Of a DNA stretch of 64,000 bases, positions 7,767-61,712 are shown one piece after another. The DNA lies in contig OY282360.1 of assembly GCA_958295675.1 (NCBI GenBank), positions 358,394-422,393 on the forward strand, given 5' to 3'. Made by a program: the position numbers and the translations under genes. The notes below the pieces were generated by a model. That model worked only from the letters and a program-made list of their open reading frames with translations, had not been told where the DNA came from and did not search any database. How positions within the stretch are numbered: the first letter of the stretch is position 1; each line of letters opens with the position of its first letter. This DNA is from Minisyncoccota bacterium. Its GTDB lineage: Bacteria; Patescibacteriota; Minisyncoccia; Phycocordibacterales; JABAAK01.

Positions 7767-7840
7767 TATGTTTTGCACAGCATTTAGGGTTTTACACATT
7801 GCATATTCATTCCCTATTTTGTGATAATACATATATATAT

Positions 7841-9277
7841 ATGAATAATGAAGAAACACCGAAAGGTGTGTATACTGACACGCTGTTGCCGCCGCAGACA
7901 CACCCCGCACCTCATGAAAGCGCAGTTGAGATGTCATTGCTCGGCGCGCTGCTGTGGAATGCGGATCGTTTTCACGATGTTGCCGAAATTGTTGATATTG
8001 ACGCGTTCTATGTTCCAAAACACCGTCATATTTTTGAAGCGATGCATGTTATTTCAAAACAGGGTGAAGCGATTGACTCAGTGACGATTGGCACCACTCT
8101 TGAGCAGATTGATCAACTTGAGGCAATAGGCGGTCGGGAATACCTCGCCGATTTGATAGAGCAGTCCCCCTCTACCGCGCATGTGGAGAGTTACGCGAAG
8201 ATTATTCAGAACGCGTACATTCGCCGTCGGCTGCAGAACGCCGGCACCAACATAGCGGAACTAAGTGTTTCGGGCGACAAAGAAGTTGAAACGCTTATAG
8301 ATGAATCAGAAAAAGAGCTGTTTGAGATAACACAGCATCACACGCACGCGCGGTACAAGGAGATAGCCGGCGTTATTCCCGATCTTGTGCATGAAATAAT
8401 TACGGTATCAGAAAATAGCAACAAGCACCGCGGTGTGCCGACCGGCTATGAGAAAATAGATAACGCACTATCCGGTCTGCATCCGTCTGACCTTGTTATT
8501 CTCGCGGCTCGTCCGAGTGTGGGTAAAACCGCACTCGCACTGGATATCGCACGCCGCACCGCGCTTGATCACAAAACACCGGTCGGTATTTTTTCGTTGG
8601 AAATGAGCACTGCTCAATTGATTGAGCGTTTACTCGCCTCTCAATCAGGGCTTGATGCGTGGCGCATGCGGACCGGGAGAATAAAGTCACAAAAAGATTT
8701 TGCTGCCTTGAATGAAGCAGCTGATCGACTCCGCGCGCTCCCTATCTATATTGATGACCGATCAGCGATGTCCACTTTGAATATCCGGTCAACCGCACGG
8801 CGGATGAAGCGGGAGCATGACATTCAAATACTTATCGTGGACTACCTGCAGCTCGTTAATCCGCATGAGACCCGCAGGTCTGACTCGTTGGTGCAGCATA
8901 TTACTGAAGTATCCCGCACGCTCAAGCAAGTCGCACGGGAACTTTCCATACCGGTATTGGCACTTTCTCAACTATCCCGGGATATTGAAAAACGAATGGG
9001 CAAACCGCGACTCTCCGATTTGCGGGATTCCGGATCAATTGAACAAGACGCTGATGTCGTTATGTTTCTGCATCGCAAAACCGATCAAATGTATGAGGGT
9101 GATGATAACGCACCCATACCGACAGAACTGCTCATTGAGAAACACCGAAACGGACCGACCGGTCGGGTTGCGCTGCAGTTTGATAAAAAGTTCGCGACAT
9201 TTAAGGAGCCCGCACCGGAAGAGTATGCGGGACAGGAGTTTGATGAAGGGGTGTCAGATGATACTGTTCCGTTTTAG
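7841..9277 (+). CDS. dnaB: replicative DNA helicase DnaB
   Basis: N-terminal LLGALLWN, Walker A ARPSVGKTALALDIA, LIVDYLQL, SQLSRDIEKR..KPRLSDLRDSGSIEQDADVV. Start taken at MNNEETP (7841). Confidence 0.85.
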   Translation: MNNEETPKGVYTDTLLPPQTHPAPHESAVEMSLLGALLWNADRFHDVAEIVDIDAFYVPKHRHIFEAMHVISKQGEAIDSVTIGTTLEQIDQLEAIGGREYLADLIEQSPSTAHVESYAKIIQNAYIRRRLQNAGTNIAELSVSGDKEVETLIDESEKELFEITQHHTHARYKEIAGVIPDLVHEIITVSENSNKHRGVPTGYEKIDNALSGLHPSDLVILAARPSVGKTALALDIARRTALDHKTPVGIFSLEMSTAQLIERLLASQSGLDAWRMRTGRIKSQKDFAALNEAADRLRALPIYIDDRSAMSTLNIRSTARRMKREHDIQILIVDYLQLVNPHETRRSDSLVQHITEVSRTLKQVARELSIPVLALSQLSRDIEKRMGKPRLSDLRDSGSIEQDADVVMFLHRKTDQMYEGDDNAPIPTELLIEKHRNGPTGRVALQFDKKFATFKEPAPEEYAGQEFDEGVSDDTVPF

Positions 9278-9283
9278 AAGAAT

Positions 9284-9892
9284 ATGGAATACGGACAGAC
9301 ATTTCTCGCGCTCGTCGAGTTGTTTAAAAAATTTCCGGGTATCGGACAGCGGCAGGCATTGCGATTCGCACATTTTATTATCCATTCGGATCAGCGGTAT
9401 GCGCGTCAACTGACCGACACCATTACCGCGGCATATCAAGCAAGCAAGCAGTGTCCTCAGTGTTTTATTCGCCATGAGTCAGACAGTGATATATGCACCA
9501 TTTGTCTGCAGAACGGAGTAGATACGCTTACAATCGTTGAAAAAGATATGGATGTGCATGTATTGCTCGCATCCGCCGACGGCAATCTGCATACGCATTA
9601 CTTTGTATTCGGCGGTCTCATACCAATAGCGAATGATACATCGGATCATGTTCGTATACAGCAACTGATGGAAACGATAAAGACAAAAAAACCGAAAGAA
9701 ATAATAATCGCATTCTCAGTGCATCCCGATGCGGATCACACTATCCGCCACCTTGCAGATCAAATCCGCAGCACATTCTCAGACATTACCGTCTCCGCGC
9801 TCGGACGAGGTCTCTCAAGCGGATCAGAGATTGAATACGCTGATCCGGAAACTATCACGAATGCGCTTAAAAAGCGAGAAAATGTACTGTAA
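9284..9892 (+). CDS. recR: recombination protein RecR
   Basis: 202 aa. HhH FPGIGQRQALRFA, C4 zinc finger CPQC...CTIC, Toprim region. Confidence 0.85.
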   Translation: MEYGQTFLALVELFKKFPGIGQRQALRFAHFIIHSDQRYARQLTDTITAAYQASKQCPQCFIRHESDSDICTICLQNGVDTLTIVEKDMDVHVLLASADGNLHTHYFVFGGLIPIANDTSDHVRIQQLMETIKTKKPKEIIIAFSVHPDADHTIRHLADQIRSTFSDITVSALGRGLSSGSEIEYADPETITNALKKRENVL

Positions 9893-9915
9893 AATAAAGG
9901 TATTTTCTTAAAAAA

Positions 9916-9951
9916 TTGACAATATATATATATATATATATATGGTATAGT
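9916..9951 (+). promoter_or_regulatory. promoter with (AT)11 dinucleotide tract in the spacer (TTGACA-(AT)11-gg-TATAGT)
   Basis: TTGACA 9916-9921, (AT)11 9922-9943, TATAGT 9946-9951. The 24-nt spacer is supra-optimal. Candidate slipped-strand phase-variable promoter. Confidence 0.4.
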
Positions 9952-10081
9952 CCTTACTGGATGTAGAAACTTCCCTACTCTTGCTATCTGGTGTAAAGTA
10001 TTGTATACTGTATATCAGACAGTGAGAGCAGATTTCCTGTTTTTACTAAACCTTCACACTTTCACGAAAGGAGAAACTCTA

Positions 10082-10873
10082 GTGAAACAACTCATCACCA
10101 CGGCTGTCATGGCCGTACTCGCATGCGTGAGCATGTCTGCCACCGCTTCGGACCGAGGTTTCATCTCGGATGTTTCGGTAGCCTACGGGTCGCTTCTCCC
10201 GGACGTGATGCCACAGAGCTTCACGGAAGACAGCCTCGTAGTCGCCAGACTCACCGTCGAGGGCAGCTTGATCGTACGCGGCGATACCCCGGTAGTCGCG
10301 GCGGATGTACACGTCAACAACTACGACTTCGGCGGCGCGCTGCGAATTCGGCAGTTCATGTCGATTTCGCAAGACCAGGCCTTGGTGAACGCGGAGGTTG
10401 CTCCCGAAACCGAGGAGAGTCAATCGCATTTCGCGTTCAGCGCGGACAATACCGTAGTGACCAACGCGGATTCCGGCGAGGAGTGGCGCGTTAGCTCCGT
10501 AACCTCCGCGGTTTACGGTGGCGTGCGCGTCGTCAGCGTCATTGTTGACCGCGTAAGGACGGACAATTTGGCAGAGGTGACTGTCACAGTCAAGGATGCC
10601 ACGGCATTGGTTGGTTCTTTTTCGAAAGATTCCGGTCCAGATCCCATCAAACACTTCGATCGCCTTCACAAGGGCGGTTTGGAGCGACGCGATGTCCGTA
10701 CCGTCCTGCGGAACATGATGGACCAAGAGTCCGAGATTGTTTCGGTAGAGGTCACCGGCGCACCGGAGGCGAACAGTATTCGCCTCATTGCCTCGCAGGG
10801 TGAGGAGTCGGCAGAGACACGAGTTGCCGTCACGGGCGACGATTACGACGGTTACAGAGTGGTCAACCTGTAA
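10082..10873 (+). CDS. lipoprotein (lipobox VLAC), variable N-terminal half, conserved C-terminal half; paralog 1
   Basis: GTG start 9 nt after AAAGGAG. Signal VKQLITTAVMAVLAC|VS. GC-rich (~60%) relative to flanks. An alternative in-frame ATG at 10001 would add a 27-aa extension. Confidence 0.6.
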   Translation: MKQLITTAVMAVLACVSMSATASDRGFISDVSVAYGSLLPDVMPQSFTEDSLVVARLTVEGSLIVRGDTPVVAADVHVNNYDFGGALRIRQFMSISQDQALVNAEVAPETEESQSHFAFSADNTVVTNADSGEEWRVSSVTSAVYGGVRVVSVIVDRVRTDNLAEVTVTVKDATALVGSFSKDSGPDPIKHFDRLHKGGLERRDVRTVLRNMMDQESEIVSVEVTGAPEANSIRLIASQGEESAETRVAVTGDDYDGYRVVNL

Positions 10874-10886
10874 CTAGCCGTTTCTT

Positions 10887-10927
10887 CGGCACCACAGACC
10901 CGAATACGCTTACAGCGTGTTCGGGTC
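10887..10927 (+). terminator. intrinsic terminator
   Basis: gacccgaatac-gcttacagc-gtgttcgggtc plus tttcttttt. Confidence 0.55.
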
Positions 10928-10977
10928 TTTCTTTTTGTACAAAATGTCTTTGTTTTACACTACATTTTCTTAAAAAA

Positions 10978-11013
10978 TTGACAATATATATATATATATA
11001 TATATGGTATAGT
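10978..11013 (+). promoter_or_regulatory. promoter with (AT)11 spacer tract (copy 2)
   Basis: TTGACA 10978-10983, (AT)11 10984-11005, TATAGT 11008-11013. Confidence 0.4.
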
Positions 11014-11146
11014 CCTTACTGGATGTAGAAACTTCCTTACTCTTGCTATCTGGTGTAAAGTATTGTATACTGTATATCAGACAGTGAGAGCAGGTTTCCT
11101 GTTTTTACTAAACCTTCACAACACTTTCACGAAAGGAGAAACTCTA

Positions 11147-11938
11147 GTGAAAAAACTCATCACCACGGCTGTCATGGCCGTACTCGCATGCGTGAGCATG
11201 TCTGCCATTGGTGCCGGTGTAAACCAGACCCACGAATTCGATCCGAAGGAGGGTATGTTGAGCATCGTCATGGGATCGATGTTTGACAATACGTTGATGT
11301 CCGCCACATCCGACCGCGGTGCCAGCAACCTCTTTGCGATCAGGCTCAGTGCTCCCGAATTGGTAGTTAGCGGGGATGCCGAAGTAGGTGTCTCAGATGC
11401 CAGGGGTGTTAGCAGCTTTGATTTTGGCGGCGGACATCTGGAGATCAGGCAAATCGTCTCCATTTCGAGAGATCAGGCGCTGGTGAATGCCAAAGTTCTT
11501 GAGGATGGTTCGTCGACACAAACCCAAGGTGCTCCGTTCTTCAATGAGGACGGCACTATGGTTAACATTCACGGTGACCAATGGCGTGTCCGCACTGTCT
11601 CTTCGGCAATCTATGACGGAACTCGAGTGGCGAGTTTCATCGTTGACCGTGTAACGGATGACAACCTTGCGAAAGTTACCGTCACGGTCAAGAATGCTAC
11701 GACGGCACTTATCGAAGACACTCATCACCTTCACAAGGGTGGTTTGGAGCGACGCGATGTCCGTGCCGTCTTGCGGAACATAATGGACCAGGAGTCTGAG
11801 ATTGTCTCCGTAGAGGTTACCGATGTTCCGGAGACGAACAGCATTCGCCTCGTTGCCCAGCAGGATGAAGAACTGGCAGAGACCCGAATTGCCGTCACAG
11901 GCGGCGATTACGAAGACTACATGGTCATCAGCCAATAG
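11147..11938 (+). CDS. lipoprotein paralog 2 (same signal peptide and C-terminal 110 aa, divergent N-terminal mature region)
   Basis: GTG after AAAGGAG. VKKLITTAVMAVLAC lipobox. C-terminus HLHKGGLERRDVRAVLRNIMDQESEIVSVEVT is about 90% identical to paralog 1. Confidence 0.6.
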   Translation: MKKLITTAVMAVLACVSMSAIGAGVNQTHEFDPKEGMLSIVMGSMFDNTLMSATSDRGASNLFAIRLSAPELVVSGDAEVGVSDARGVSSFDFGGGHLEIRQIVSISRDQALVNAKVLEDGSSTQTQGAPFFNEDGTMVNIHGDQWRVRTVSSAIYDGTRVASFIVDRVTDDNLAKVTVTVKNATTALIEDTHHLHKGGLERRDVRAVLRNIMDQESEIVSVEVTDVPETNSIRLVAQQDEELAETRIAVTGGDYEDYMVISQ

Positions 11939-11966
11939 TCAACCGTTCTTTTCCCTCGGCACCACA

Positions 11967-12006
11967 GACCCGAATACGCTTACAGCGTGTTCGGGTCTTT
12001 CTTTTT
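11967..12006 (+). terminator. intrinsic terminator (copy 2)
   Basis: Same hairpin plus T-run as 10887-10927. Confidence 0.55.
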
Positions 12007-12143
12007 GTACAAAATGTCTTTGTTTTACACTACATTATTCTTGCTGTCTGATGTAAAGTATTGTATACTATGCGTCAGGCAGTAAGAGCAGGTTTCCTGT
12101 TTTTGCTTCTAAACCTTCACACTTTCGCAAAGGGGAGATATCA

Positions 12144-12419
12144 ATGTCCCATCCAAGTTTGGAGCAAAAGGAGCCATGTGTGTCAGCTCATGCTGTCATG
12201 TTTGTGCTTGTTCACTGCTACGCTTTTGCAGGATTGCATTTCTTCCTTGATGATTCCAACAATTGGCTTCCGCTAATCCTTGGATGTCTTGGAAGTGTCG
12301 TAACGGCTTTGTCGCTGTTACTAAAACGGTCAGCGCAAGTGAATATTACACTCGGATTGTTGCTCGGGTTCCTTGCTTTTCTTGTCTTCTTTGGTGTGGT
12401 TCTTCCTTTTTCTAGATAA
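12144..12419 (+). CDS. small hydrophobic membrane protein occupying the lipoprotein slot of degenerate cassette 3
   Basis: 91 aa with 2-3 TM segments. Preceded by the conserved leader 3' portion and AAAGGGGAG. This unit has lost the promoter and AT tract. Confidence 0.35.
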   Translation: MSHPSLEQKEPCVSAHAVMFVLVHCYAFAGLHFFLDDSNNWLPLILGCLGSVVTALSLLLKRSAQVNITLGLLLGFLAFLVFFGVVLPFSR

Positions 12420-12465
12420 GGATTGTGCAACGCCGTTGCTGTAAACACGGATTCCAGTAAACAAT

Positions 12466-12580
12466 GGCGTGTCAACACTGTCTCTTCGGTGGTCTACGAT
12501 GGAACTCGGGTGATGAACGGCGAAGACCTTCTTTACCGTCGACAGCGATTACAACGGTTACAGAGTGGTCAACCTGTAAC
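12466..12580 (+). pseudogene. remnant of a third lipoprotein paralog (internal deletion, frameshift)
   Basis: QWRVNTVSSVVYDGTRV and the ...DYNGYRVVNL tail match the paralog C-terminus but are joined by a short out-of-frame linker. Confidence 0.5.
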
Positions 12581-12602
12581 TAGCCGTTTCTTCGGCACCA
12601 CG

Positions 12603-12642
12603 GACCCGAATACGCTTACAGCGTGTTCGGGTCTTTCTTTTT
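12603..12642 (+). terminator. intrinsic terminator (copy 3)
   Basis: Same hairpin plus T-run. Confidence 0.5.
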
Positions 12643-12721
12643 GTACAAAATATCTTGAGCGTGAACTATATATATGCGCGACATTGGAAATATGCAGAAT
12701 AGATACACCCTCCTCTTCCCT

Positions 12722-13039
12722 TTATTTTATTGTATTGATTCGAACACGACAAAATGGCTGTCGGTGTCCGTAATGCCGACGGTAGTTTGACTTTGCCCGA
12801 AAGCGGATAACAGAAATCTTCTTTTGCTTTCCTACTTTCTCCACAGTACCAGTTACTGTTTTGCCGGTAATATACGGTTTTCCGATGTCAGTTTTTGTAC
12901 CGTCATCAAAAAGAAGCACTTTATCAAAAGTGACGGTCTTCCCTTCCTCGCATCCGGGAAATATTTCAATATCAAGAACCGTGTTATCATGCACACAGTA
13001 TTGCTTGCCGCCTGTTTGTATAACTGCAAGATTATTCAT
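12722..13039 (-). CDS. rplU: 50S ribosomal protein L21
   Basis: 105 aa. AVIQTGGKQYCV...FDKVLLFDDG...GHRQPF is the L21 signature. Confidence 0.85.
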   Translation of the reverse strand: MNNLAVIQTGGKQYCVHDNTVLDIEIFPGCEEGKTVTFDKVLLFDDGTKTDIGKPYITGKTVTGTVEKVGKQKKISVIRFRAKSNYRRHYGHRQPFCRVRINTIK

Positions 13040-28382: not shown

Positions 28383-29432
28383 TTACGCAAGCGAATCCGA
28401 TCGTCTGTTCCTGAGATGCAGCAGAGCAATGTGGCGCACAAACTCATTCTCATCTTTGACAAGTTTTTCGAGTACTTCAATCGGTGTGTTCGGATGTTGA
28501 GCGACAAGAGATCTGATCAGCAAATCCGCATTGCCGGCAAACAATGTAAGTTGTTCTGCCGGTGTATTCGGGTTACAAATGGCAGAACGCAATACCAATT
28601 CATCTGTATCTTTGAGAAGGAATGTCAGAGATTCTAGTGGAATGTTCTCGTTTTCAGCAAGCAGTTTTCGCACAAACCAACTTTTATCTACAGAAAGTAA
28701 TGCGAATGCTCTCGTCAAAGTAATCTTACTTCTAGCTATTTCTGCCCGCACATCCTCATCAGGATCTGTAGCAAAACCTGTGAGTGCTTTTATTAACCGT
28801 TTCTTTCTCTTGGCAAGAGTCAACCGCACAGAATCAGCCTTATCCTTGGCGAGTCGCATGAATACTGGGATCGGCAGCTTCTTTCTCTTGGCAAGAGTAA
28901 ACCGTACATGGACATCTTCGTCTTCAGTGAGACGCATGAGTATTTGGATTGGCAGCTTCTTTCTCTTGGCAAGAATACACCGTACATACCAATCCTCATC
29001 CTCAGCAAGTCGCATGAGTACTTGGATCGGCAGCTTCTTTTTCTCGGCAAGAATACGCCGTACATGTACATACCAATCCCCACTCTCAGCAAGTCGCATG
29101 AGTACTTGGATCGGCAGCTTCTTTCTCTCGGCAAGAATACACCGTACATACCAATCCTCATCCTCAGCAAGTCGCATGAGTACTTGGATCGGCAGCTTCT
29201 TTCTCTTGAGAATAGCACGCTGTACATAAAAATTCTCATCCTCAGCAAGTCGCATGAGTACTTCTTCCGGCAGATCCTCTCTCTCGGCAACAATATACCG
29301 TACATGCCAATTCTCATCCTCAGCAAGTCGAGCAAGTGTTTCTTGCGAAGATGTTATTTTGGCAAGAATATATCGCGGAAGAGTAGTAAGTATACCCAGA
29401 ACCCACAAACAGATTTCTTGGAATACATTCAT
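28383..29432 (-). CDS. LRV-repeat protein with N-terminal hydrophobic segment
   Basis: 349 aa. Seven or more LPIQVLMRLAEDEDWYVRCILAERKK repeats (26 aa). Confidence 0.6.
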   Translation of the reverse strand: MNVFQEICLWVLGILTTLPRYILAKITSSQETLARLAEDENWHVRYIVAEREDLPEEVLMRLAEDENFYVQRAILKRKKLPIQVLMRLAEDEDWYVRCILAERKKLPIQVLMRLAESGDWYVHVRRILAEKKKLPIQVLMRLAEDEDWYVRCILAKRKKLPIQILMRLTEDEDVHVRFTLAKRKKLPIPVFMRLAKDKADSVRLTLAKRKKRLIKALTGFATDPDEDVRAEIARSKITLTRAFALLSVDKSWFVRKLLAENENIPLESLTFLLKDTDELVLRSAICNPNTPAEQLTLFAGNADLLIRSLVAQHPNTPIEVLEKLVKDENEFVRHIALLHLRNRRSDSLA

Positions 29433-29641
29433 CCGAGTACCTCCTTCTTCGGTTCCTTTAGGATCAAAGACCCATCCTGATTCATAGTATTATATTTTAA
29501 GTGTATTGTCAATAAATAACTGAATATACTGATAGTATATTTTGTTTACAAATGGCAGAACGCAACACCACTTCAATGATCCAATTTCACTTGCCAATCT
29601 TCATCCTTCACAATGGTGTAATATATTTTCTAAAAAATGAA

Positions 29642-29664
29642 CCCCGAACATATAGTGTTCGGGG
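29642..29664. terminator. bidirectional hairpin terminator element, copy 4
   Basis: ccccgaaca-tata-gtgttcgggg. Confidence 0.5.
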
Positions 29665-29733
29665 TTTAGCGGAAACGCCGGTGAGTTCAGGTACGAATCA
29701 GGGTTTGCCTTTTATCAAGCAAGAACTGCACTT

Positions 29734-32103
29734 TTAGGAAACCGTCTGTCTTTTGAGATTCTCAACAGCCGTCTCTCGCACCCACGGATTCTTATCCTCC
29801 GCAAGCTTGGCAAGAACTTCTTTCGGTGTGTTCCGATGCTTGGCAACAGCCAACCGAATCCGCCAATACGCATCCTCAGCAAGTCGCACGAGTACTTCTA
29901 TGAGAACTTCCCTCGGTGTGTTCCGATGTTTGGTAACACTAAACCGCACCCACGCATTCTCATCCTCGGCAAGCTTGGTGAGAGCTTCTTTCGGTGTGTT
30001 CCGATGTTTGGTAACACTCAACCGCACCCACGCATTCTCATCCTCAGCAAGCTTGGTAAGAGCTTCTTTCGGTGTGTTCGGATGCTCGGCAACTTCCTGC
30101 CGCACCCACGCATTCTCATCCTCGGCAAGCTTGGTGAGAACTTCTTTCGGTGTGTTCCGCTGCTTAGCAACTTCCCGCCGCACCCACGGATTCTTATCCT
30201 CGGCAAGCATTTTAAGCACTTCCAAAGGTGTGTTTGGATTCATGGCGACACCTATTCGCACACCTGCATTCTCATCCTCGGCAAGCTTGGCAAGAATTTC
30301 TTTCGGTGTGTTCCGATGCTTAGCAACTTCCTGCCGCACCAACACATTTTCATCCTCAGCAAGTCGCATGAGTGCTTCTTCCGGTAAGTCCTTCCTCTTG
30401 GCAAGAGTCAACCGCACATCCAGATTTTTATTATCAGTAAGATGAATGAGATCTTCTTTCGGTGTGTCCCGATGTTTAGCAAAAGCCAACCAAACCCGCC
30501 AATTCTTATCCTCAGTAAGTCGCACGAGTGCTTCTTCCGGCAAGTCCTTCCTCTTGATAAGAGTAAGCTGCACATCCAGATTCTTATCCTCGGCAAGCTT
30601 GGTGAGAGCTTCTTTCGGTGTGTTCGGATGCTCGGCAACTTCCCGCCGAACCCGCCAATCCTTATCCTCAGCAAGTCGCACGAGTACTTCTTCCGGCAAG
30701 TCCTTCCTCTTGGGAAGAGTAAGCTGCACATCCAGATTCTTATCCTCGGCAAGTTTGATGAGAGCTTCTTTCGGTGTGTTCCGATGCTTAGCAACTTCCT
30801 GCCGCACCAACGCATTCTCATCCTCGGCAAGCTTGGTGAGAACTTCTTTTGATGCTTTCTTATACTTGGCAACAGCAAACCGAACCCGCCAATTCTTATC
30901 CTCAGCAAGTCGCACGAGTACTTCTTCCGGCAAGTCCTTCCTCTTGGGAAGAGTCAACCGCACATCCAGATTCTTATCCTCGGCAAGTTTGATGAGAGCT
31001 TCTTTCGGTGTGTTCCGATGATTAGCAACTTCCTGCCGCACCAACGCATTCTCATCCTCGGCAAGCTTGGTGAGAGCTTCTTTCGGTGTGTTCCGATGCT
31101 TGGCAACAGCCAACTGAATCCGCCAATCCTTATCCTCAGCAAGTCGCATGAGTGCTTCTTCCGGCAAGTCCTTCCTCTCGGTAAGAGTCAACCGCACATC
31201 CAGATTTTTATTACCAGTAAGATGAACGAGAGATTCTTTCGGTGTGTTCCGATGCTTGGCAACAGCCAACCGAACCCGCCAATTCTTATCCTTAGCAAGT
31301 CGCATGAGTGCTTCTTCCAGTAAGTCCTTCCTCCTGGTAAGAGCAAGCCGCACATCCAGATTTTTATCATCAGTAAAATGAACGAGAACTTTTCTCGGTG
31401 TGTTCCGATGCTTAGCAACTTCCTGCCGAACCCGCCAATCCTTATCCTCAGCAAGTCGCACGAGTACTTCTTCCGGCAAGTCCTTCCTCTTGGCAAGAGT
31501 CAACCGCACATTCTGTTTCTTATCCCCGGCAAGTTTGATGAGAGCTTCTTTCGGTGTGTTCGGATGCTCGGCAACTTCCCGCCGCCGCAGCCAATCCTTA
31601 TCTCCGGCAAGTTGCATGAGTACTTCTCTGAGAATTTCCCTCGGTGTGTTTCGATGTTTGGTAACACTCAACCGCACCCACGAATCCTTATCCCCGGCAA
31701 GTTTGATGAGAACTTCTCTCGGCGTGTTCCGATTCTTGGCAACTTCCCGCCGCACGGACCGATTCTTATCCTCGGCAAGTTTGATGAGAATTTCTCTCGG
31801 TGTGTTCCGATGCTCGGCAACAACCGACCGAACCGACCAATTCTCATCCTCAGCAAGTTTGATGAGAACTTCTTTTGGTGCGTTCCTATGCCTGGCAATT
31901 CTATCTCGCACAAACCAAAACGCATCTTCAGCAAGTCGCACGAGTACTTCTTCCGGCAGATCCTTTCTCTCGGCAAGAGTCAACCGCACCAGAAAATCCT
32001 TATCCCCGGCAAGTCGCATGAGTTTTTCATGAGATGTACAAGGGTCCTTGGCGGCTTTCAATCGTGCCACCACATTTCTCTTTCTCCTGCTCTTTCTACT
32101 CAT
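29734..32103 (-). CDS. giant LRV-repeat protein (~27 repeats)
   Basis: 789 aa of LAEDKNWRVRQEVAKHRNTPKEALIK-type 26-aa units. K/R-rich N-terminus. Confidence 0.65.
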   Translation of the reverse strand: MSRKSRRKRNVVARLKAAKDPCTSHEKLMRLAGDKDFLVRLTLAERKDLPEEVLVRLAEDAFWFVRDRIARHRNAPKEVLIKLAEDENWSVRSVVAEHRNTPREILIKLAEDKNRSVRREVAKNRNTPREVLIKLAGDKDSWVRLSVTKHRNTPREILREVLMQLAGDKDWLRRREVAEHPNTPKEALIKLAGDKKQNVRLTLAKRKDLPEEVLVRLAEDKDWRVRQEVAKHRNTPRKVLVHFTDDKNLDVRLALTRRKDLLEEALMRLAKDKNWRVRLAVAKHRNTPKESLVHLTGNKNLDVRLTLTERKDLPEEALMRLAEDKDWRIQLAVAKHRNTPKEALTKLAEDENALVRQEVANHRNTPKEALIKLAEDKNLDVRLTLPKRKDLPEEVLVRLAEDKNWRVRFAVAKYKKASKEVLTKLAEDENALVRQEVAKHRNTPKEALIKLAEDKNLDVQLTLPKRKDLPEEVLVRLAEDKDWRVRREVAEHPNTPKEALTKLAEDKNLDVQLTLIKRKDLPEEALVRLTEDKNWRVWLAFAKHRDTPKEDLIHLTDNKNLDVRLTLAKRKDLPEEALMRLAEDENVLVRQEVAKHRNTPKEILAKLAEDENAGVRIGVAMNPNTPLEVLKMLAEDKNPWVRREVAKQRNTPKEVLTKLAEDENAWVRQEVAEHPNTPKEALTKLAEDENAWVRLSVTKHRNTPKEALTKLAEDENAWVRFSVTKHRNTPREVLIEVLVRLAEDAYWRIRLAVAKHRNTPKEVLAKLAEDKNPWVRETAVENLKRQTVS

Positions 32104-32246
32104 GTATAATCCTCCCTTGGTTCAGTTTCTTCAGATAAGAGGCATTCTCTCATCACCGAGAATAGTATACTATGTTTTCTAAAAAAATAAACCTTAAAAA
32201 GATTATATAAAAAAATTCCACCAGCATTTCTACTAGTGGAGTGAGT

Positions 32247-32963
32247 TTAGAGCACTTCCGTAAAGAACCGTCTTTCAAACCAAGAAAGGATAGCCTGCAC
32301 CACTTGATCTCGTTCCAATGTACCGTCCAGGAATGCTTTTACAACTTTTATGAAAGCCAGAAACCAGAAATCCATTTCTACATCTTCGTTGGAAAGTAGG
32401 TCAGATGCTCCAATCTCTAGTTCTTGGACACTTGAGTAGACAGCTTGCCACGAATCTTTTGCATCTTCTTCAAATGTTTTAAGCATGGCAAGCCGTGCTT
32501 TGGTAAAATTCACTTCAAACTCAAGAAACATCACTCTAAGAGTAGAGGCAGAAATGCTCCTTTCTTTTTCGTAGTATTTTACAATTTCAAGAAGAAGTAT
32601 TAGTTCCTTCGGTATGTTTGAGTTTCTGTAGAGAAATTCAAGCACAATGGAGGACACCTTTTTCTCGTCTTTGGCAAGTTGCATCAGAATTTCAAAAGAT
32701 GCTTTTGGATTCTTGCCGACATTTCTTCGCACATACCAGTGCGTGTCTCCAGCGAGTTGCGTAAGAGATTTCACCGGCATGCTTGGGTGCTCAGCGGCAG
32801 CTGCCCGCACCCGCCAATCCTTGTCTCTGGCAAGCCGTACGAGAGATGCTACTGGTGTATCCGGATTCCTGGCTGCACGGCGTTGCACACGCCAATCATC
32901 GTCTTTTGCATACGCAATGAGCATTTTTTCCGGAACAGGTTCTCGCCGCGCAAAAACAAGCAT
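32247..32963 (-). CDS. LRV-repeat protein with unique C-terminal domain
   Basis: 238 aa: four LRV units then about 130 aa of non-repeat helical sequence. Confidence 0.6.
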   Translation of the reverse strand: MLVFARREPVPEKMLIAYAKDDDWRVQRRAARNPDTPVASLVRLARDKDWRVRAAAAEHPSMPVKSLTQLAGDTHWYVRRNVGKNPKASFEILMQLAKDEKKVSSIVLEFLYRNSNIPKELILLLEIVKYYEKERSISASTLRVMFLEFEVNFTKARLAMLKTFEEDAKDSWQAVYSSVQELEIGASDLLSNEDVEMDFWFLAFIKVVKAFLDGTLERDQVVQAILSWFERRFFTEVL

Positions 32964-33040
32964 TCAATACCTCCTTTTAGGTTTGTTTAGCATGAGACAA
33001 AATCTCCAAAGTAAGTATACCACTTTAGGATACATTTTTC

Positions 33041-33063
33041 AAAAAACAAACCCCAAACACATA
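33041..33063. terminator. bidirectional hairpin terminator element, copy 5
   Basis: ccccaaacac-ata-gtgtttgagg. Confidence 0.45.
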
Positions 33064-33083
33064 GTGTTTGAGGTTCTGATGAC

Positions 33084-33618
33084 TCAGGAAGAAGTCGATG
33101 ATGTATTCAGTTCTGCTCGTGCAGTAAGTCCTGTCCGCACAACCAAATTCTCATCCTCAGCAAGCAGCGTGGCTACCTCAGTCGGCAAAGTCATTTCTCC
33201 TGGCAAGAGCGGACCGTACCCGCCGATCCTTATCCTTAGCAAGCCGCATGGCTGCCTCAGTCGGCAAGTCATCTCTCCTGGCAAGAGCGGACCGTACCCG
33301 CCGATTCTTATCCTCAGCAAGCCACATGGCTACATTAGCCGGCAGGTCATCTCTCATGGCAAGAGAACGCCGAACAGACGCTTTTGCATCCTCAGCAAGC
33401 CGCATGGCTACTTCAGCAGGCAACTGCTTTCTCTTAGTAAGAAGAAGCCGTACACGCACCCCTCCATTCTCTGCAAGACGAACAAGTCTTTTTGATGAAG
33501 ATGATCTTACGGCAAGAATCTGCCACACAAGATCAAGCATCATTTTTCGGAACACATGCATGACCCAAATACCTCCTTTTAGGTTTGTTTGGAATGAGAG
33601 AAAACCTCTAAATAACAA
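33084..33618 (-). pseudogene. LRV-repeat gene split by a frameshift
   Basis: ORF 33178..33618 (LRV units) and ORF 33084..33320 (continuing ...LPTEVATLLAEDENLVVR) are in different frames. Confidence 0.45.
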
Positions 33619-38123: not shown

Positions 38124-38146
38124 CCCCAAACATATAGTGTTTGGGG
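38124..38146. terminator. bidirectional hairpin terminator element, copy 8
   Basis: ccccaaacatatagtgtttgggg. Confidence 0.5.
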
Positions 38147-38251
38147 TTTGTTTTTAAACAATTTGAAAACATAGTTAAAAAAAATGGTATATTATTTGTT
38201 GGAAAGATTCCCCTTTCTGTTTATTTCAAACACACCAAAAGGAGGTGTTTT

Positions 38252-38968
38252 GTGGATCCACACATGTCTCGGCTCCGTAGGAATATACAGCACGTTGATG
38301 ATAATTTAGATCTCAGCAATCTCACCTCCGCGAAAGGACTCACGCTACCTGAAGAGATTGTTGGTGATCTGAATCTCAGCGGTCTTGTCTCCGCTGAGGG
38401 ACTCACCCTGCCGAGGAAGATTGGTGGTGATCTGCGGCTCAACGGTCTCACCTCCGCTGAAGGACTCACGCTACCTGAAGAGATTGGTGGTCATCTGGAT
38501 CTCAGAGATCTCACCTCCGCGAAAGGACTCACGCTACCTGAAGAGATTGGTGGCAGTCTGGTTCTCAGCGGTCTCACCTCCGCTGAGGGACTCACCCTGC
38601 CGAGGAAAATTGGTGGTGGTCTGTTTCTCAGCGGTCTCAAGTCCGCGAAAGGACTCACGCTACCTGAAGAGATTGGTGGTGATCTGTGGCTCATCGGTCT
38701 CACCTCCGCGAAAGGACTCACGCTACCTGAAGAGATTAGTGGCAGTCTGTGGCTCGACAATCTCACCTCCGCGAAAGGACTCACGCTACCTGAAGAGATT
38801 AGTGGCAGTCTGTGGCTCGACAATCTCACCTCCGCGAAAGGACTCACCCTGCCGAGGAAAATTGGTGGCATTTTGTTTCTCAGCGGACTCACCTCCGCTG
38901 AGGGACTTACACTCCCTGAAGAGATTGGTGGTTATCTGTGGATCGGAGGAAGGAAGGTACAGCATTAG
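38252..38968 (+). CDS. family-A 22-aa tandem-repeat protein (about 10 repeats)
   Basis: GTG after AGGAGG. VDPHMSRLRRNIQHVDDNLDLSNL then LTSAKGLTLPEEIGGxLxLxGL units. Confidence 0.65.
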   Translation: MDPHMSRLRRNIQHVDDNLDLSNLTSAKGLTLPEEIVGDLNLSGLVSAEGLTLPRKIGGDLRLNGLTSAEGLTLPEEIGGHLDLRDLTSAKGLTLPEEIGGSLVLSGLTSAEGLTLPRKIGGGLFLSGLKSAKGLTLPEEIGGDLWLIGLTSAKGLTLPEEISGSLWLDNLTSAKGLTLPEEISGSLWLDNLTSAKGLTLPRKIGGILFLSGLTSAEGLTLPEEIGGYLWIGGRKVQH

Positions 38969-39042
38969 TGTTGCTATAAGCAACCCACCACCGGAAGTCC
39001 TTGCAACATTGATGGACGATAAGGTTTCTCCCTGAATCGTCA

Positions 39043-39065
39043 GAACCCCGAACATTATGTGTTCG
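39043..39065. terminator. bidirectional hairpin terminator element, copy 9
   Basis: ccccgaacattatgtgttcgggg. Confidence 0.5.
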
Positions 39066-39171
39066 GGGTTTATTTTTTAAATAACTTGAAAATTATAGTT
39101 TAAATGGTATCTTGTTTGTTAGAAAGGTTTCCCTTTCTGTTCGTTTCAAACACACCAAAAGGAGGTGTTTT

Positions 39172-40095
39172 GTGAATCAAACTGGCTCCGTGATGCAACA
39201 CACTGATGATTTAGATCTCAGCAACCTCACCTCCGCGAAAGGACTTACACTCCCTGAAGAGATTACTGGCACTCTGGATCTCAGCGGTCTCACCTCCGCT
39301 GAGGAACTCACGCTACCTGAAGAGATTGGTGGTAATCTGGATCTCAGAGGTCTCACCTCCGCTGAGGGACTCACCCTGCCGAGGAAGATTGGTGGTGCTC
39401 TGTTGCTCGACGGTCTCACCTCCGCGAAAGGACTCACGCTACCTGAAGAGATTGGTGGTGATCTGTGGCTCATCGGTCTCACCTCCGCGAAAGGACTCAC
39501 GCTACCTGAAGAGATTGGTGGTCATCTGGTTCTCAACGGTCTCACCTCCGCGAAAGGACTCACCCTGCCGAGGAAAATTGGTGGCATTTTGTTTCTCATC
39601 GGTCTCACTTTCGCTGAAGAACTCACCCTGCCGAGGAAGATTAGCGGTAGTCTGTATCTCAACGGTCTCACCTCCGCTAAGGGACTTACGCTACCTGAAG
39701 AGATTGGTGGTCATCTGATTCTCAGCGGTCTCACTTCCGCGAAAGGACTCACCCTACCGAGGAAGATTGGTGGTGCTCTGGTTCTCAGCGGTCTCACCTC
39801 CACTGAAGGACTCACCCTGCCGAAGAAGATTGGTGGTGATCTGGATCTCAACGGTCTCAAGTCCGCTGAAGAACTCACACTACCTGAAGAGATTGGTGGC
39901 AGTCTGTTTCTCGACGGTCTCAGTTCCGCTGAGGGACTCACGCTACCTGAAGAGATTGGTGGCATTCTGGTTCTCAACGGTCTCACCTCCACGAAAGGAC
40001 TCACCCTGCCGAGGAAGATTGGTGGTCATCTGGATCTCAGAGGTCAGAACCCCGAACATTATGTGTTCGGGGTTTATTTTTTTAAACAACTTTAA
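39172..40095 (+). CDS. family-A 22-aa tandem-repeat protein (about 13 repeats); 3' tail deleted, ORF reads through the terminator hairpin
   Basis: GTG after AGGAGG. The repeat is fused directly to tcagaaccccgaaca...; ends FGVYFFKQL. Confidence 0.55.
   Translation: MNQTGSVMQHTDDLDLSNLTSAKGLTLPEEITGTLDLSGLTSAEELTLPEEIGGNLDLRGLTSAEGLTLPRKIGGALLLDGLTSAKGLTLPEEIGGDLWLIGLTSAKGLTLPEEIGGHLVLNGLTSAKGLTLPRKIGGILFLIGLTFAEELTLPRKISGSLYLNGLTSAKGLTLPEEIGGHLILSGLTSAKGLTLPRKIGGALVLSGLTSTEGLTLPKKIGGDLDLNGLKSAEELTLPEEIGGSLFLDGLSSAEGLTLPEEIGGILVLNGLTSTKGLTLPRKIGGHLDLRGQNPEHYVFGVYFFKQL
40047..40069. terminator. bidirectional hairpin terminator element, copy 10
   Basis: ccccgaacattatgtgttcgggg. Confidence 0.5.
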
Positions 40096-40179
40096 AATTA
40101 TAGTTAAAAATGGTACCTTGTTTGGTAGGAAAGGATTTCCCTTTCTGTTCATTTCAAACACACCAAAAGGAGGTGTTTT

Positions 40180-42579
40180 GTGAATCAAAAGATGTACCGG
40201 ATCCGTGAGAAGATACAGCACACTGATGATGATGATTTAGATCTCAGCAATCTCACCTCCGCGAAAGGACTCACTCTGCCGAGGAAGATTGGTGGCAGTC
40301 TGTTTCTCAGAGGTCTCACCTCCGCGAAAGAACTCACGCTACCTGAAGAGATTGGTGGTGATCTGTGGCTCGACGGTCTCACCTCCGCGAAAGGACTCAC
40401 GCTACCGAAAGAAATCGGCGGTGTTCTGAATCTCAACGGACTCACCTCCGCTGAAGGATTCACGCTACCTGAAGAGATTGGTGGTGGTCTGTGGCTCAAC
40501 GGTTTCGATCCCGCGAAAGGATTCACCCTGCCGAGGAAGATTGGTGGTGATCTGCGGCTCGACGGTCTCACCTCCGCGAAAGGACTCACGCTACCTGAAG
40601 AGATTGGTGGTCTGTTTCTCAGAGGTCTCACCTCCGCAAAAGGACTCACACTACCTGAAGAGATTGGTGGTGATCTGGATCTCACCGGTCTCACTTCCGC
40701 GAAAGGACTCACTCTGCCGAGGAAGATTGGTGGTGATCTGTGGCTCAACAGACTCACTTCCACGAAAGGACTCACGCTACCTGAAGAGATTGGTATTGGT
40801 GGTGATCTGCGGCTCGACGGTCTCACCTCCGCGAAAGGACTCACCCTGCCGAGGAAGATTGGTGGTCTGGATCTCAGCGGTCTCACTTCCGCGAAAGGAC
40901 TCACGCTACCTGAAGAGATTGGTGATGATCTGTTGCTCGACAATCTCACTTCCGCGAAAGGACTCACGCTACCTGAAGAGATTGGTGGCAGTCTGGTTCT
41001 CAGAGGTCTTACCTCCGAGAAAGGACTCACCCTGCCGAGGAAGATTGGTGGCAGTCTGTTTCTCAGAGGTCTCGCCTCCGCGAAAGAACTCACGCTACCT
41101 GAAGAGATTGGTGGTGATCTGGATCTCAGCGGTCTCACTTTCGCGAAAGAACTCACCCTGCCGAGGAAGATTGGTGGTGAACTGGATCTTAGCGGTCTCA
41201 CCTCCGCGAAAGAACTCACGCTACCTGAAGAGATTGATATTGGTGGTCATCTGGATCTCAGAGGTCTCACCTCCGCTGAAGAACTCACCCTGCCGAGGAA
41301 GATTGGTGGTCATTTGCGGCTCGACGATCTCAAGTCCGCTGAGGGACTTACACTCCCTGAAGAGATTGGTGGTGATCTGCGGCTCGACGGTCTCACCTCC
41401 GCAAAAGGACTCACGCTACCTGAAGAGATTGGTGGTCGTCTGGATTTCAGCGGTCTCACTTCCGCTGAAGAACTCACGCTACCTGAAGAGATTGCTGGTG
41501 ATCTGGTTCTCAGAGGTCTCACCTCCGCGAAAGGACTCACGCTACCTGAAGAGATTGGTGGTGATCTGGTTCTCATCGGTCTCACCTCCACGAAAGGACT
41601 CACCTTGCCGAGGAAGATTGGTGGTGATCTGGTTCTCAGAGGTCTCACCTCCGCGAAAGGACTCACGCTACCTGAAGAGATTGGTGGTGATCTGGATATC
41701 AGCGGTCTCACCTCCGCGAAAGGACTCACGCTACCTGAAGAGATTGGTGGTGATCTGGTTCTCATCGGTCTCACCTCCGCTGAAGAACTCACACTACCTG
41801 AAGAGATTGGTGGTAGTCTACATCTCAGCGGTCTTACCTCCGCGAAAGGACTCACCCTGCCGAGGAAGATTGGTGGTGGTCTGTATCTCATCGGTCTCAC
41901 CTCCGCGAAAGGACTCACCCTGCCGAGGAAGATTGGTGATCATCTGTGGCTCGACGGTCTCACCTCCGCGAAAAAACTCACGCTACCTGAAGAGATTGGT
42001 GGTCTGTTTCTCAGCGGTCTCACTTCCGCTAAAGAGATAAGTGGCAGTCTGTATCTCAACGGACTCACTTCAGCGGAAGGACTCATCCTACCGAGGAAGA
42101 TTGGTGGTCATCTGGTTCTCAGCGGTCTCACCTCCGCTGAAGAACTCACACTACCTGAAGAGATTGGTGGTGATTTGGATCTCAGCGGTCTCACCTCCGC
42201 GAAAGGACTCATACTACCGGAAGAGATTGGTGGTGATTTGATTCTCAGCGGTCTCACTTCCGCGAAAGGACTCACGCTACCTAAAGAGATTGGTGGTCAT
42301 CTGGATCTCAGCGGTCTCACCTCCACGAAAGGACTCACCTTAGCGAGGAAGATTGGTGGTGAACTGGATCTTAGCGGTCTCACCTCCGCGAAAGAACTCA
42401 CGCTACCTGAAGAGATTGATATTGGTGGTCATCTGGATCTCAGAGGTCTCACCTCCGCGAAAGGACTCACTCTGCCGAGGAAGATTGGTGGTGATCTGCT
42501 TCTCAGCGGTTATTATCCCATGCTTCTTTCTTTTTCTCTTCATTCTCAGCATCTATTTCCTCCTGCCGAGGAAAATTAG
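40180..42579 (+). CDS. family-A giant 22-aa tandem-repeat protein (about 35 repeats), interrupted near the 3' end
   Basis: 799 aa in frame 1. A non-repeat ~52-nt segment at about 42512-42565 replaces 24 nt of one repeat, causing a +1 shift. The repeat frame resumes and ends at 42706 (...LKSLQD). Confidence 0.55.
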   Translation: MNQKMYRIREKIQHTDDDDLDLSNLTSAKGLTLPRKIGGSLFLRGLTSAKELTLPEEIGGDLWLDGLTSAKGLTLPKEIGGVLNLNGLTSAEGFTLPEEIGGGLWLNGFDPAKGFTLPRKIGGDLRLDGLTSAKGLTLPEEIGGLFLRGLTSAKGLTLPEEIGGDLDLTGLTSAKGLTLPRKIGGDLWLNRLTSTKGLTLPEEIGIGGDLRLDGLTSAKGLTLPRKIGGLDLSGLTSAKGLTLPEEIGDDLLLDNLTSAKGLTLPEEIGGSLVLRGLTSEKGLTLPRKIGGSLFLRGLASAKELTLPEEIGGDLDLSGLTFAKELTLPRKIGGELDLSGLTSAKELTLPEEIDIGGHLDLRGLTSAEELTLPRKIGGHLRLDDLKSAEGLTLPEEIGGDLRLDGLTSAKGLTLPEEIGGRLDFSGLTSAEELTLPEEIAGDLVLRGLTSAKGLTLPEEIGGDLVLIGLTSTKGLTLPRKIGGDLVLRGLTSAKGLTLPEEIGGDLDISGLTSAKGLTLPEEIGGDLVLIGLTSAEELTLPEEIGGSLHLSGLTSAKGLTLPRKIGGGLYLIGLTSAKGLTLPRKIGDHLWLDGLTSAKKLTLPEEIGGLFLSGLTSAKEISGSLYLNGLTSAEGLILPRKIGGHLVLSGLTSAEELTLPEEIGGDLDLSGLTSAKGLILPEEIGGDLILSGLTSAKGLTLPKEIGGHLDLSGLTSTKGLTLARKIGGELDLSGLTSAKELTLPEEIDIGGHLDLRGLTSAKGLTLPRKIGGDLLLSGYYPMLLSFSLHSQHLFPPAEEN

Positions 42580-42739
42580 TGGTAGTCTGTTTCTCAGCGG
42601 TCTCACTTCCGCGAAAGGACTCACCCTACCTGAAGAGATTGGTGGTGATTTGGTTCTCAGCGGTCTCACCATACCACCGGAAATCCTTAAGTCCTTGCAA
42701 GATTGATGGACGATAAGGTTTCTCCCTGAGTCGTCAGAA

Positions 42740-42762
42740 CTCCGAACACATAGTGTTCGGGG
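42740..42762. terminator. bidirectional hairpin terminator element, copy 11
   Basis: ctccgaacacatagtgttcgggg. Confidence 0.5.
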
Positions 42763-42863
42763 TTTATTTTTAAATAACTTGAAAATATAGTTAAAAAATA
42801 GTACATTGTTTGTTAGAAGGGTTTCCCTTTTTGTTCACTTCAAACACACCAAAAGGAGATTTT

Positions 42864-43904
42864 ATGAATGTGGGGACACCACCAACAAAACTTACAGCGG
42901 AAGTGATTGCAGGGTGGGGGGCACCAGACAACTGGATGCTCCGGCTTTGGAAGAAGTTGAAGCAGCGTGCTGTGATCTTTTGTCTCATCACACTCCGTAG
43001 GGAGATGCAGTACATTGATGGCGATATGGATCTCAGCGGTCTCACCTCCGCTGAGGGACTCACCCTGCCGAGGAAGATTGGTGGTTGTCTGGATCTCAGC
43101 GGTCTCACCTCCGCTGAGGGACTCACCCTGCCGGAGGAAATCGGTGATTGGCTGGATCTCAGAGGTCTCACCTCCGCTGAGGGACTCACCCTGCCGGAGG
43201 AAATCGGTAATTGGCTGGATCTCAGCGGTCTCACCTCCGCTGAGGGACTCACGCTACCGAAAGAGATTACTGGCAATCTGTTTCTCAGCGGTCTCACCTC
43301 CGCGAAAGGACTCACCCTGCCGAGGAAGATTGGTGGCGGTCTGGATCTCAGCGGTCTCACCTCCGCTGAGGGACTCACCCTGCCGAGGAAAATTGGTGGT
43401 GGTCTGTTTCTCAGCGGTCTCACCTCCGCGAAAGGACTCACCCTGCCGAGGAAGATTGGTGGTTTTCTGTGGTTCAGCGGTCTCACCTCCGCTGAGGGAA
43501 TCACCTGGCCGGAAGAGATTGGTGGTGATCTGGATCTCAGCGGTCTCACTTCCGCGAAAGGACTCACGCTACCGAAAGAGATTACTGGCAATCTGTTTCT
43601 CAGCGGTCTCACTTCCGCGAAAGGACTCACGCTACCGAAAGAGATTACTGGCAATCTGTTTCTCAGCGGTCTCACTTCCGCGAAAGGACTCACGCTACCT
43701 GAAGAGGTTGGTGGTGATCTGGATCTCAGAGGTCTCACTTCCGCTGAAGAACTCACACTACCTGAAGAGATTGGTGGCGATCTGGTTCTCAACGGTCTCA
43801 CCTCCGCGAAAGGACTTACGCTACCGAGGAAGATTGGTGGTGATCTGGTTCTCAGCGGTCTCAGAATACCACCGGAAGAAGTCTTTAAGTCCTTGCAAGA
43901 TTGA
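42864..43904 (+). CDS. family-A 22-aa tandem-repeat protein with LRV-type N-terminal module (MNVGTPP...MLRLWKKLKQRAV...ITLRR)
   Basis: ATG after AAAGGAG. N-terminal 55 aa are homologous to 36852..37139, then about 13 of the 22-aa repeats. Confidence 0.65.
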   Translation: MNVGTPPTKLTAEVIAGWGAPDNWMLRLWKKLKQRAVIFCLITLRREMQYIDGDMDLSGLTSAEGLTLPRKIGGCLDLSGLTSAEGLTLPEEIGDWLDLRGLTSAEGLTLPEEIGNWLDLSGLTSAEGLTLPKEITGNLFLSGLTSAKGLTLPRKIGGGLDLSGLTSAEGLTLPRKIGGGLFLSGLTSAKGLTLPRKIGGFLWFSGLTSAEGITWPEEIGGDLDLSGLTSAKGLTLPKEITGNLFLSGLTSAKGLTLPKEITGNLFLSGLTSAKGLTLPEEVGGDLDLRGLTSAEELTLPEEIGGDLVLNGLTSAKGLTLPRKIGGDLVLSGLRIPPEEVFKSLQD

Positions 43905-43937
43905 TGGACGATAAGGTTTCTCCCTGAGTCGTCAGAA

Positions 43938-43960
43938 CCCCAAACATATAGTGTTTGGGG
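43938..43960. terminator. bidirectional hairpin terminator element, copy 12
   Basis: ccccaaacatatagtgtttgggg. Confidence 0.5.
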
Positions 43961-44065
43961 TTTGTTTTTAAACAATTTGAAAACATAGTTAAAAAAAATG
44001 GTATATTATTTGTTGGAAAGATTCCCCTTTCTGTTTATTTCAAACACACCAAAAGGAGGTGTTTT

Positions 44066-45265: not shown

Positions 45266-45331
45266 TGCTCAAAAATCGCATCTTCCGCGTAAGATTGACG
45301 GACGATAAGGTTTCTTCCTGAGTCGTCAGAA

Positions 45332-52190: not shown

Positions 52191-52280
52191 GCTGACGGTA
52201 GTGTACCCCATATATCAAATGCCGTACTCTTTCTTGTGTGAAGATGTTTTTTAGTTTTAATTGTATTCCATTTCATTATT

Positions 52281-53321: not shown

Positions 53322-53370
53322 ACATATATATGGTAGATACGAATGTGGAAAAATTGATTATATCTATAGT

Positions 53371-54093: not shown

Positions 54094-54160
54094 ACTGGAA
54101 AATAGTATACCCTATATACTAAACATTTCCTTTGGTTTGATTGTATTCCATTTCATTATT

Positions 54161-55636: not shown

Positions 55637-55662
55637 ACTGGAAAATAGTATAACACACAGGT

Positions 55663-60653: not shown

Positions 60654-60707
60654 TCATCAATAATAGAAACAAAGATAAAGATATTTTTATAGTATACTAC
60701 CCTCGGT

Positions 60708-61655: not shown

Positions 61656-61712
61656 TCATCAATAATAGAAACAAAGATAAAGAGATATTTTTTATACTAC
61701 ACTACTCTTTAT

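Follow-up and report, generated by a model that had tools for sequence, protein, structure and literature searches.

In Haemophilus influenzae, a tract of nine to eleven TA units separates the −35 and −10 elements at hifA/hifB (van Ham 1993; Geluk 1998, as cited in PMC2651432), and the Vmm lipoprotein of M. mycoides is turned ON and OFF by dinucleotide insertions and deletions in its promoter spacer (Persson 2002, as cited in PMC2628566 and PMC10502178). In the vlp system of M. hyorhinis, each promoter carries a poly(A) tract and gives a separate transcript (Citti and Wise 1995, as cited in PMC10502178). The hmw1A gene of H. influenzae combines an upstream repeat with a long hairpin in the 5′ untranslated region (5′ UTR), which is processed by RNase III (PMC12721329). 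Here we describe a tandem array of putative lipoprotein genes with AT tracts in their promoters, located in a 64,000-nucleotide stretch of a Minisyncoccota genome (contig OY282360.1, positions 358,394 to 422,393; hereafter the window, in whose numbering all positions are given). By its architecture, the array appears to fit the class of promoter-spacer simple-repeat switches represented by the hif, vmm, vlp and porA types.

The comparison with hif, Vmm and vlp draws on the accounts of these systems given in the citing papers. As in hif, an AT (TA) tract forms the promoter spacer and the number of units sets the distance between −35 and −10; the hif product is a surface structure. However, in hif a single tract serves two divergent, overlapping promoters, whereas here two separate tandem promoters point in one direction. 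The hif spacer cycles through 14, 16 and 18 bp, while the spacer here, at 24 bp, would have to lose three or four units to become usable. The host phyla and proteins are unrelated, and where the hif tract varies in length, both tracts here have 11 units. Vmm resembles our locus in its small-genome, host-dependent bacterium, its lipoprotein gene and its dinucleotide spacer repeat, but it has no sequence homology to the 263-aa proteins encoded here. PMC2628566 notes repeating elements in the variable membrane proteins of mycoplasmas, whereas the 263-aa proteins have no internal repeats, the only internal match by Tandem Repeats Finder in the first coding sequence (CDS 1) being 9 nt in two copies. 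Family and protein searches found no homology to the described mycoplasma variable lipoprotein families (Vlp, Vsp, Vmm). The vlp genes are likewise tandem lipoprotein genes with a repeat-bearing promoter each, but their repeat is a homopolymer rather than a dinucleotide, the present array has just two intact genes, and no homology links them. Finally, hmw1A shares the combination of a repeat upstream of a surface-protein gene with a long, stable 5′-UTR hairpin; there the heptamer repeat is part of the transcript and supplies an arm of that hairpin, whereas the AT repeat described here lies in the promoter spacer, is expected to be untranscribed and is separate from the hairpin.

Bacteria of the candidate phyla live attached to host cells, and the variation of their surfaces is little understood. 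Our preferred reading of the locus, which we hold to be nearly as probable as its negation, is that tract length tunes the promoter of each of two orphan genes, with a high state at 7–8 units and a low state at 11.

Two AT-tract promoters in a tandem array

Between recR (9284–9892, + strand) and rplU (12722–13039, − strand), three units lie head-to-tail on the + strand, two of them complete and the third degraded. Their start-to-start spacing is 1062–1070 bp, as a first, sequence-only reading of this DNA had proposed (units of about 1062 bp). The layout given in that reading held overall, while its two quantitative identity statements were overstated, as described below. Shuffled sequence gave no match to the leader core, the AT tract or the terminator, and zero chance matches are expected for each.

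The promoter of unit 1, here called P1, consists of a perfect −35 element, TTGACA (9916–9921), an (AT)11 tract (9922–9943) that together with GG (9944–9945) makes a 24-bp spacer, and a −10 element, TATAGT (9946–9951), that matches five of six consensus positions. Together with the G that follows, the final T of the tract places a TGn motif before TATAGT, giving the extended −10 sequence TGGTATAGT (9943–9951). Unit 2 carries the identical arrangement, TTGACA-(AT)11-GG-TATAGT, at 10978–11013 (−35, 10978–10983; tract, 10984–11005; −10, 11008–11013), which bears out the earlier observation that the first two copies share one promoter. In a repeat census of the window, the two (AT)11 tracts are the sole long simple-sequence repeats; after them, dinucleotide tracts reach at most 6 units and homopolymers at most 9 bases. 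Since the −35 and the extended −10, both directly adjoining a long perfect repeat, are flush with the tract ends in two units, the tract likely expanded inside a real promoter.

In sigma-70 promoters, a 24-bp spacer places the −35 out of reach, and an extended −10 (TGn) can function without a −35. The promoters of rplU (TTGACA-18-TATATT, 13234–13205) and rplI (TTGACA-16-TATACT, 2686–2659) have spacers of 16–18 bp, and on this indirect evidence from sequence the RNA polymerase of this organism evidently follows canonical sigma-70 spacing. TTGACA is also about twofold enriched in the intergenic DNA of the window, with 12 occurrences against 5.4 expected. A tract of 8 units would give a spacer of 18 bp and one of 7 units a spacer of 16 bp, as compared to 24 bp at 11 units. 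The proposal that the loss of about three units would yield 17–18 nt thus stands for 18 bp; a 17-bp spacer is unreachable because the tract changes in 2-bp steps.

P1 is followed in each complete unit by a leader, a GTG-initiated gene and a terminator. CDS 1 (10082–10873) encodes 263 aa and is preceded by a strong Shine-Dalgarno site, AGGAG (10069–10073), 8 nt upstream of the GTG at 10082, the start also given in the public annotation. An upstream in-frame start, TTG at 10001, was rejected, as it has no Shine-Dalgarno site and sits inside the leader hairpin. CDS 2 (11147–11938) also starts with GTG and encodes 263 aa. Terminator 1 (10896–10938), a 15-bp stem followed by a T run, recurs as terminator 2 (11966–12008) and terminator 3 (12602–12644), the three being near-identical over 10896–10928, 11966–11998 and 12602–12634. 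Judged from these signals, each intact gene is its own transcription unit.

Two minor observations concern the surroundings of AT tracts. Inverted repeats lie just upstream of both P1 promoters, GAAAAT...ATTTTC in unit 1 (9877–9915) and AAAATGT...ACATTTT in unit 2 (10932–10970), and the two regions are 82% mutually complementary over 39 nt; they may represent a duplication junction, a protein-binding site or AT-rich chance. Elsewhere, the sole other AT tract of at least 6 units in the window, (AT)6 at 7831–7842 (+ strand), enters the likely start codon of dnaB (ATG, 7841–7843). An extended −10-like sequence, TGTGATAAT (7820–7828), lies just before it and there is no Shine-Dalgarno site, so dnaB may be nearly leaderless.

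The leader and the degraded third unit

In units 1 and 2, 130 nt of leader separate the −10 element from the GTG start. The 157-nt block of promoter and leader is 99% identical in the two units, in keeping with the conserved leader noted earlier. From the position of P1, the putative 5′ UTR of unit 1 would comprise about 124 nt (9958–10081). It contains a 22-bp hairpin (9978–10028; 11040–11090 in unit 2), within which lies a second candidate promoter, P2, with the sequence TTGCTA-N17-TATACT (9981–10009 and 11043–11071). The predicted fold has a free energy of −37 kcal/mol (z = −3.7) in unit 1 and −42.5 kcal/mol (z = −5.2) in unit 3, and RNAalifold pairs a UUUCCU stretch with the Shine-Dalgarno site.

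The leader of unit 3 (12029–12143) lacks the P1 block and is 85% identical to those of units 1 and 2. A three-way alignment shows that its 22-bp hairpin (12038–12088) has been retained despite nine substitutions, every one of them a transition. Seven are one-sided changes that keep the pair, mostly via G-U, one converts an A·C mismatch to G-C, one falls in an unpaired bulge, and none breaks a pair. Because G-U pairs form only in RNA, and only from this strand, the pattern lends modest support to a role of the hairpin at the RNA level and to transcripts that begin upstream of P2. An Rfam scan of the leader returned no family above the gathering threshold. Matches to snoR136 were discarded because they scored 28 bits, below the gathering score of 43, and owed their signal to AT-rich sequence, and a LexA/SOS box (CTGT-N7-ACAG) was rejected for its wrong spacing.

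Unit 3 as a whole (about 12012–12650) is missing a block of roughly 72 nt that carries the AT promoter. The statement that copy 3 lacks the promoter is therefore accurate for the AT promoter, but a weaker P2-like site, TTGCTG-N17-TATACT (8 of 12 matches), remains in its leader. In place of the lipoprotein gene is an open reading frame (ORF) of 91 aa with three hydrophobic segments (12144–12419), which aligns at its start with the lipoprotein start of the other units and carries a GGGGAG site of its own. It is an orphan, with no homologue in protein searches. Lipoprotein-gene remnants follow at 12457–12580, interrupted by an internal deletion and a frameshift. A 56-nt remnant (12457–12512) is closest to unit 2 (82%), while the 3′ end, from 12546, is closest to unit 1 (97%, as compared to 68% to unit 2); unit 3 is therefore a decayed, chimeric third copy. 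The membrane ORF, the deleted remnant and the shared terminator that had been described for this copy were all located. An integron attC site was considered for the 3′ palindrome and rejected, because its core motifs are not matched and the units are equipped with promoters of their own.

Divergence and origin of the lipoprotein genes

The first 20 residues of the two proteins, MK[Q/K]LITTAVMAVLACVSMSA, which comprise the signal peptide, the lipobox Cys15 and a further five residues, differ only at residue 3. Both proteins match the lipobox pattern PROSITE PS00013 with the sequence ITTAVMAVLAC, confirming the shared lipobox signal (MAVLAC) noted earlier (PS51257 is also named for this class). 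The lipoprotein rule used calls for a Cys at positions 15–35 and a K or R within the first seven residues; the proteins have K2 and, in the VLAC motif, Cys15, which is the lower limit of the permitted positions. By eye, alternative signal-peptidase I sites can be found at ATA|SD (unit 1) and IGA|G (unit 2). Taken together, these signals suggest that the proteins are probably exported and lipid-anchored. Neither Lgt nor LspA was among the ORFs scanned in the 64-kb window of this 724-kb genome, and a literature search on Lgt/LspA in Patescibacteria found nothing.

BLASTP aligns the two proteins end to end at 51% identity (E = 3e-77). In a codon-wise Nei-Gojobori analysis of CDS 1 against CDS 2, which estimates nonsynonymous (dN) and synonymous (dS) divergence by alignment columns, columns 1–20 have 90% protein identity, 95% DNA identity and a dS of 0.07. 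Columns 21–60 fall to 10% protein identity, with dN and dS both saturated and a ratio of about 1. Protein identity recovers to 43–61% over columns 61–180 (43–50% over 61–140), where dS is saturated and dN/dS is about 0.2 where computable, and reaches 73% over the last 71 residues (82% DNA identity, dS 0.48, dN/dS 0.30). The C-terminal half as a whole is 65% identical at the protein level. It had been claimed that the C-terminal halves are about 90% identical, a value that neither the half nor the last 71 residues attains, and that some 120 N-terminal residues are unrelated; the unalignable part is confined to columns 21–60, that is, 35–40 residues right after the lipobox cysteine.

AlphaFold2 models of the proteins are poor (mean predicted local distance difference test scores, pLDDT, of 47.6 and 38.8), with very low confidence for residues 1–64. 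A low-confidence stretch with dN/dS of about 1 beside the lipid anchor is tether-like and gives no evidence of diversifying selection. The variable stretch is probably an unconstrained, unstructured lipoprotein tether. The body of the protein, with dN/dS of about 0.2–0.3, is under purifying selection, and body and variable stretch together fit purifying or relaxed selection. A hypervariable exposed domain and antigenic variation, as first suggested, are not borne out, given that only 35–40 residues vary, at a dN/dS of about 1, and the remainder is under purifying selection.

The regions around the coding bodies tell a different history. Over the 5′ block of about 240 nt that covers the promoter, the leader and the first 20 codons, units 1 and 2 have only three differences, and their terminator and spacer blocks match without a difference over 78 nt. 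Synonymous sites are saturated in the body, and functional selection cannot account for their identity in the signal peptide. The flanks must therefore have undergone recent homogenisation through gene conversion or unequal exchange. The gene bodies themselves, on this degree of divergence, are old paralogs.

Searches for relatives returned little beyond the array itself. A word-indexed search of 5.8 billion proteins found only the two copies, and a HMMER profile built from both proteins found only themselves among 1.84 billion representatives. Pfam and NCBIfam gave no significant match to the proteins, PHROGs, PADLOC and PDB sequences no match at all, and structure comparison no credible match. 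An exact-protein index held no record of the lipoproteins, RecR, L21 or the 91-aa ORF. Among genome contigs, nothing was found with the promoter pattern with a variable gap or with protein-derived patterns; among metagenome contigs, nothing with the leader pattern or the generic pattern TTGACA-(AT)n-GGTATAGT; and no related locus was found among viral contigs. RecR, in turn, identified relatives in Kaiserbacteria, Paceibacteria and other Parcubacteria-type genomes of 0.63–0.85 Mb, the best non-self match having 62% identity. The host is itself a Kaiserbacteria- or Paceibacteria-like bacterium, and its contig measures 724,510 bp. These relatives retain dnaB-recR, but their downstream genes differ and the array is absent there; none of the four relatives' loci examined contains (AT)7 or longer. 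GC content at third codon positions (GC3) is 0.66 in CDS 1 and 0.58 in CDS 2, as compared to about 0.45 in the window, while the promoters and leaders are AT-rich, like the intergenic DNA of the host. The array is a lineage-specific island of orphan genes that was possibly acquired horizontally.

One further ORF in the window, at 57382–57981 (MKIALFPLMLLLVLPSYAQEE...), has an apparent signal peptide, no Pfam match and a GC3 of 0.57. From the raised GC3, it and the two lipoprotein genes may share a foreign origin.

The tract-length model, competing readings and other window features

If P1 is tuned as we propose, the AT tract would slip during replication. With a tract of 7 or 8 units, giving 16 or 18 bp, sigma-70 would contact both hexamers and P1 would be very strong; at 11 units the −35 would be unreachable, and only weak −35-independent transcription would be left, arising from the TGn extended −10, the P2 candidate and, in unit 1, read-through from recR. 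Tract length would then constitute a heritable and reversible high or low state, set independently for each gene, with the sequenced population mostly in the low state for both. The 5′-UTR hairpin would work on the RNA through stability or processing, and its UUUCCU stretch could pair with the Shine-Dalgarno site, while gene conversion would keep the flanks identical and hence the tract lengths equal. Such a switch would not be a clean ON/OFF device, given the extended −10, the P2 site in the leader and the absence of termination between recR and unit 1. Of the phase-variation interpretation in the sequence-only reading, the promoter-switch architecture is thus retained (a spacer repeat, secretion signals, and a promoter and terminator for each gene), and the antigenic part is not.

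Several observations weigh against a tuned promoter. The tracts of units 1 and 2 are equal in length, although the surrounding 240-nt block gained three differences; this is only weak evidence against instability, because homogenisation offers an explanation. Both genes would be in the low state in the consensus sequence, and simple repeats are otherwise scarce in the window, in contrast to classical phase-variable genomes. The tract itself supplies weak −10-like hexamers (for example, TTGACA-N17-TATATG). There is no terminator from the recR stop (9892) to P1, and the P2 candidate matches 9 of 12 consensus positions in both complete units; together with the extended −10, read-through and P2 could render the −35 irrelevant. 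In addition, the hairpin substitution pattern would arise about once in 16 given transitions only, and it comes from effectively two independent sequences.

In the main competing reading, the tract would be a neutral or incidental expansion rather than an evolved switch, with expression independent of the −35 (from TGGTATAGT, from TTGCTA-N17-TATACT in the leader and from dnaB-recR read-through) and tract length having little effect, which we regard as rather unlikely but a serious contender. TG immediately precedes the −10 hexamer, P2 is present in units 1 and 2 and partly kept in the P1-less unit 3, no terminator separates recR from P1, and the two tracts have the same length. However, both units would be unlikely to carry a perfect TTGACA flush with the tract if this hexamer did not serve as a −35, P2 is weak (9 of 12 matches, and 8 of 12 in unit 3), and the hairpin substitutions suggest that transcripts start upstream of it. 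A decaying, horizontally acquired island, in which expansion past a usable spacer has silenced P1 and units 1 and 2 are becoming pseudogenes like unit 3, seems improbable. It would account for the raised coding GC3, the absence of the array from the recR neighbourhood of relatives, the clear degradation of unit 3 and a 24-bp spacer that is non-functional for −35 contact. Against this, both ORFs are intact with Shine-Dalgarno sites, dN/dS of 0.2–0.3 indicates long-term purifying selection, the flanks are maintained identical and the hexamers are intact in both promoters. More improbable still is an effect of (AT)11 through DNA structure (melting or a cruciform under supercoiling) or regulator binding rather than length change. 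With its 22 bp, the tract makes up a perfect palindrome at the core of the promoter, and the short inverted repeats AAAATGT/ACATTTT lie just upstream, but its single-strand hairpin is weak (−3.7 kcal/mol) and folds no better than shuffles, on which ground a cruciform was rejected; no regulator is encoded nearby, and the 24-bp spacing would be left unexplained.

Returning to the tuned promoter, a search of the literature turned up no account of phase variation in Patescibacteria. It is conceivable, though we lean against it, that two independently switching AT promoters on a lineage-specific pair of surface lipoprotein genes, coupled to a structured 5′ UTR and kept identical as modules by gene conversion, constitute the first reported case in the Candidate Phyla Radiation (Patescibacteria) of phase variation driven by a promoter repeat. 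If so, these ultra-small episymbionts would bet-hedge their surface against pressure from hosts, phages or immunity in the manner of mycoplasmas and mucosal pathogens, extending a strategy known from pathogens to an uncultivated radiation, and the two orphan proteins would be candidates for host or phage interaction. Should the tract be fixed at 11 units, the locus would merely hold an oddly spaced promoter on an orphan gene pair.

Other features of the window lie outside the array. Between rplI and the next gene (2794–2985, + strand), about 150 nt of non-coding sequence downstream of a TTGACA promoter-like site end in a GC-rich terminator hairpin (2954–2974) with a T-rich tail, giving a candidate unannotated small RNA that has no Rfam match even at E ≤ 1. 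On the − strand (2590–2650), a long GC-rich hairpin, ACACCGAGGGAGACAT...ATGTCTCCCTCGGTGT, between the rplI promoter (2686–2659) and start (2493) could be a leader or attenuator for ribosomal protein L9. At least eight paralogous genes built of 63-bp (21-aa) tandem repeats occupy 38140–45270, 52280–55670 and 59145–62560 on both strands; Pfam gave no meaningful match for the one paralog examined (40180–42579), and many of them carry an N-terminal 'MADICEEL.K.L...GMESDAAKK' domain. A gene cluster at 28800–33430 (− strand) consists of 78-bp (26-aa) repeats assigned by Pfam to LRV/HEAT, including a 789-aa protein (29734–32103; LRV, E = 1e-120), and makes up a large share of a 724-kb genome.

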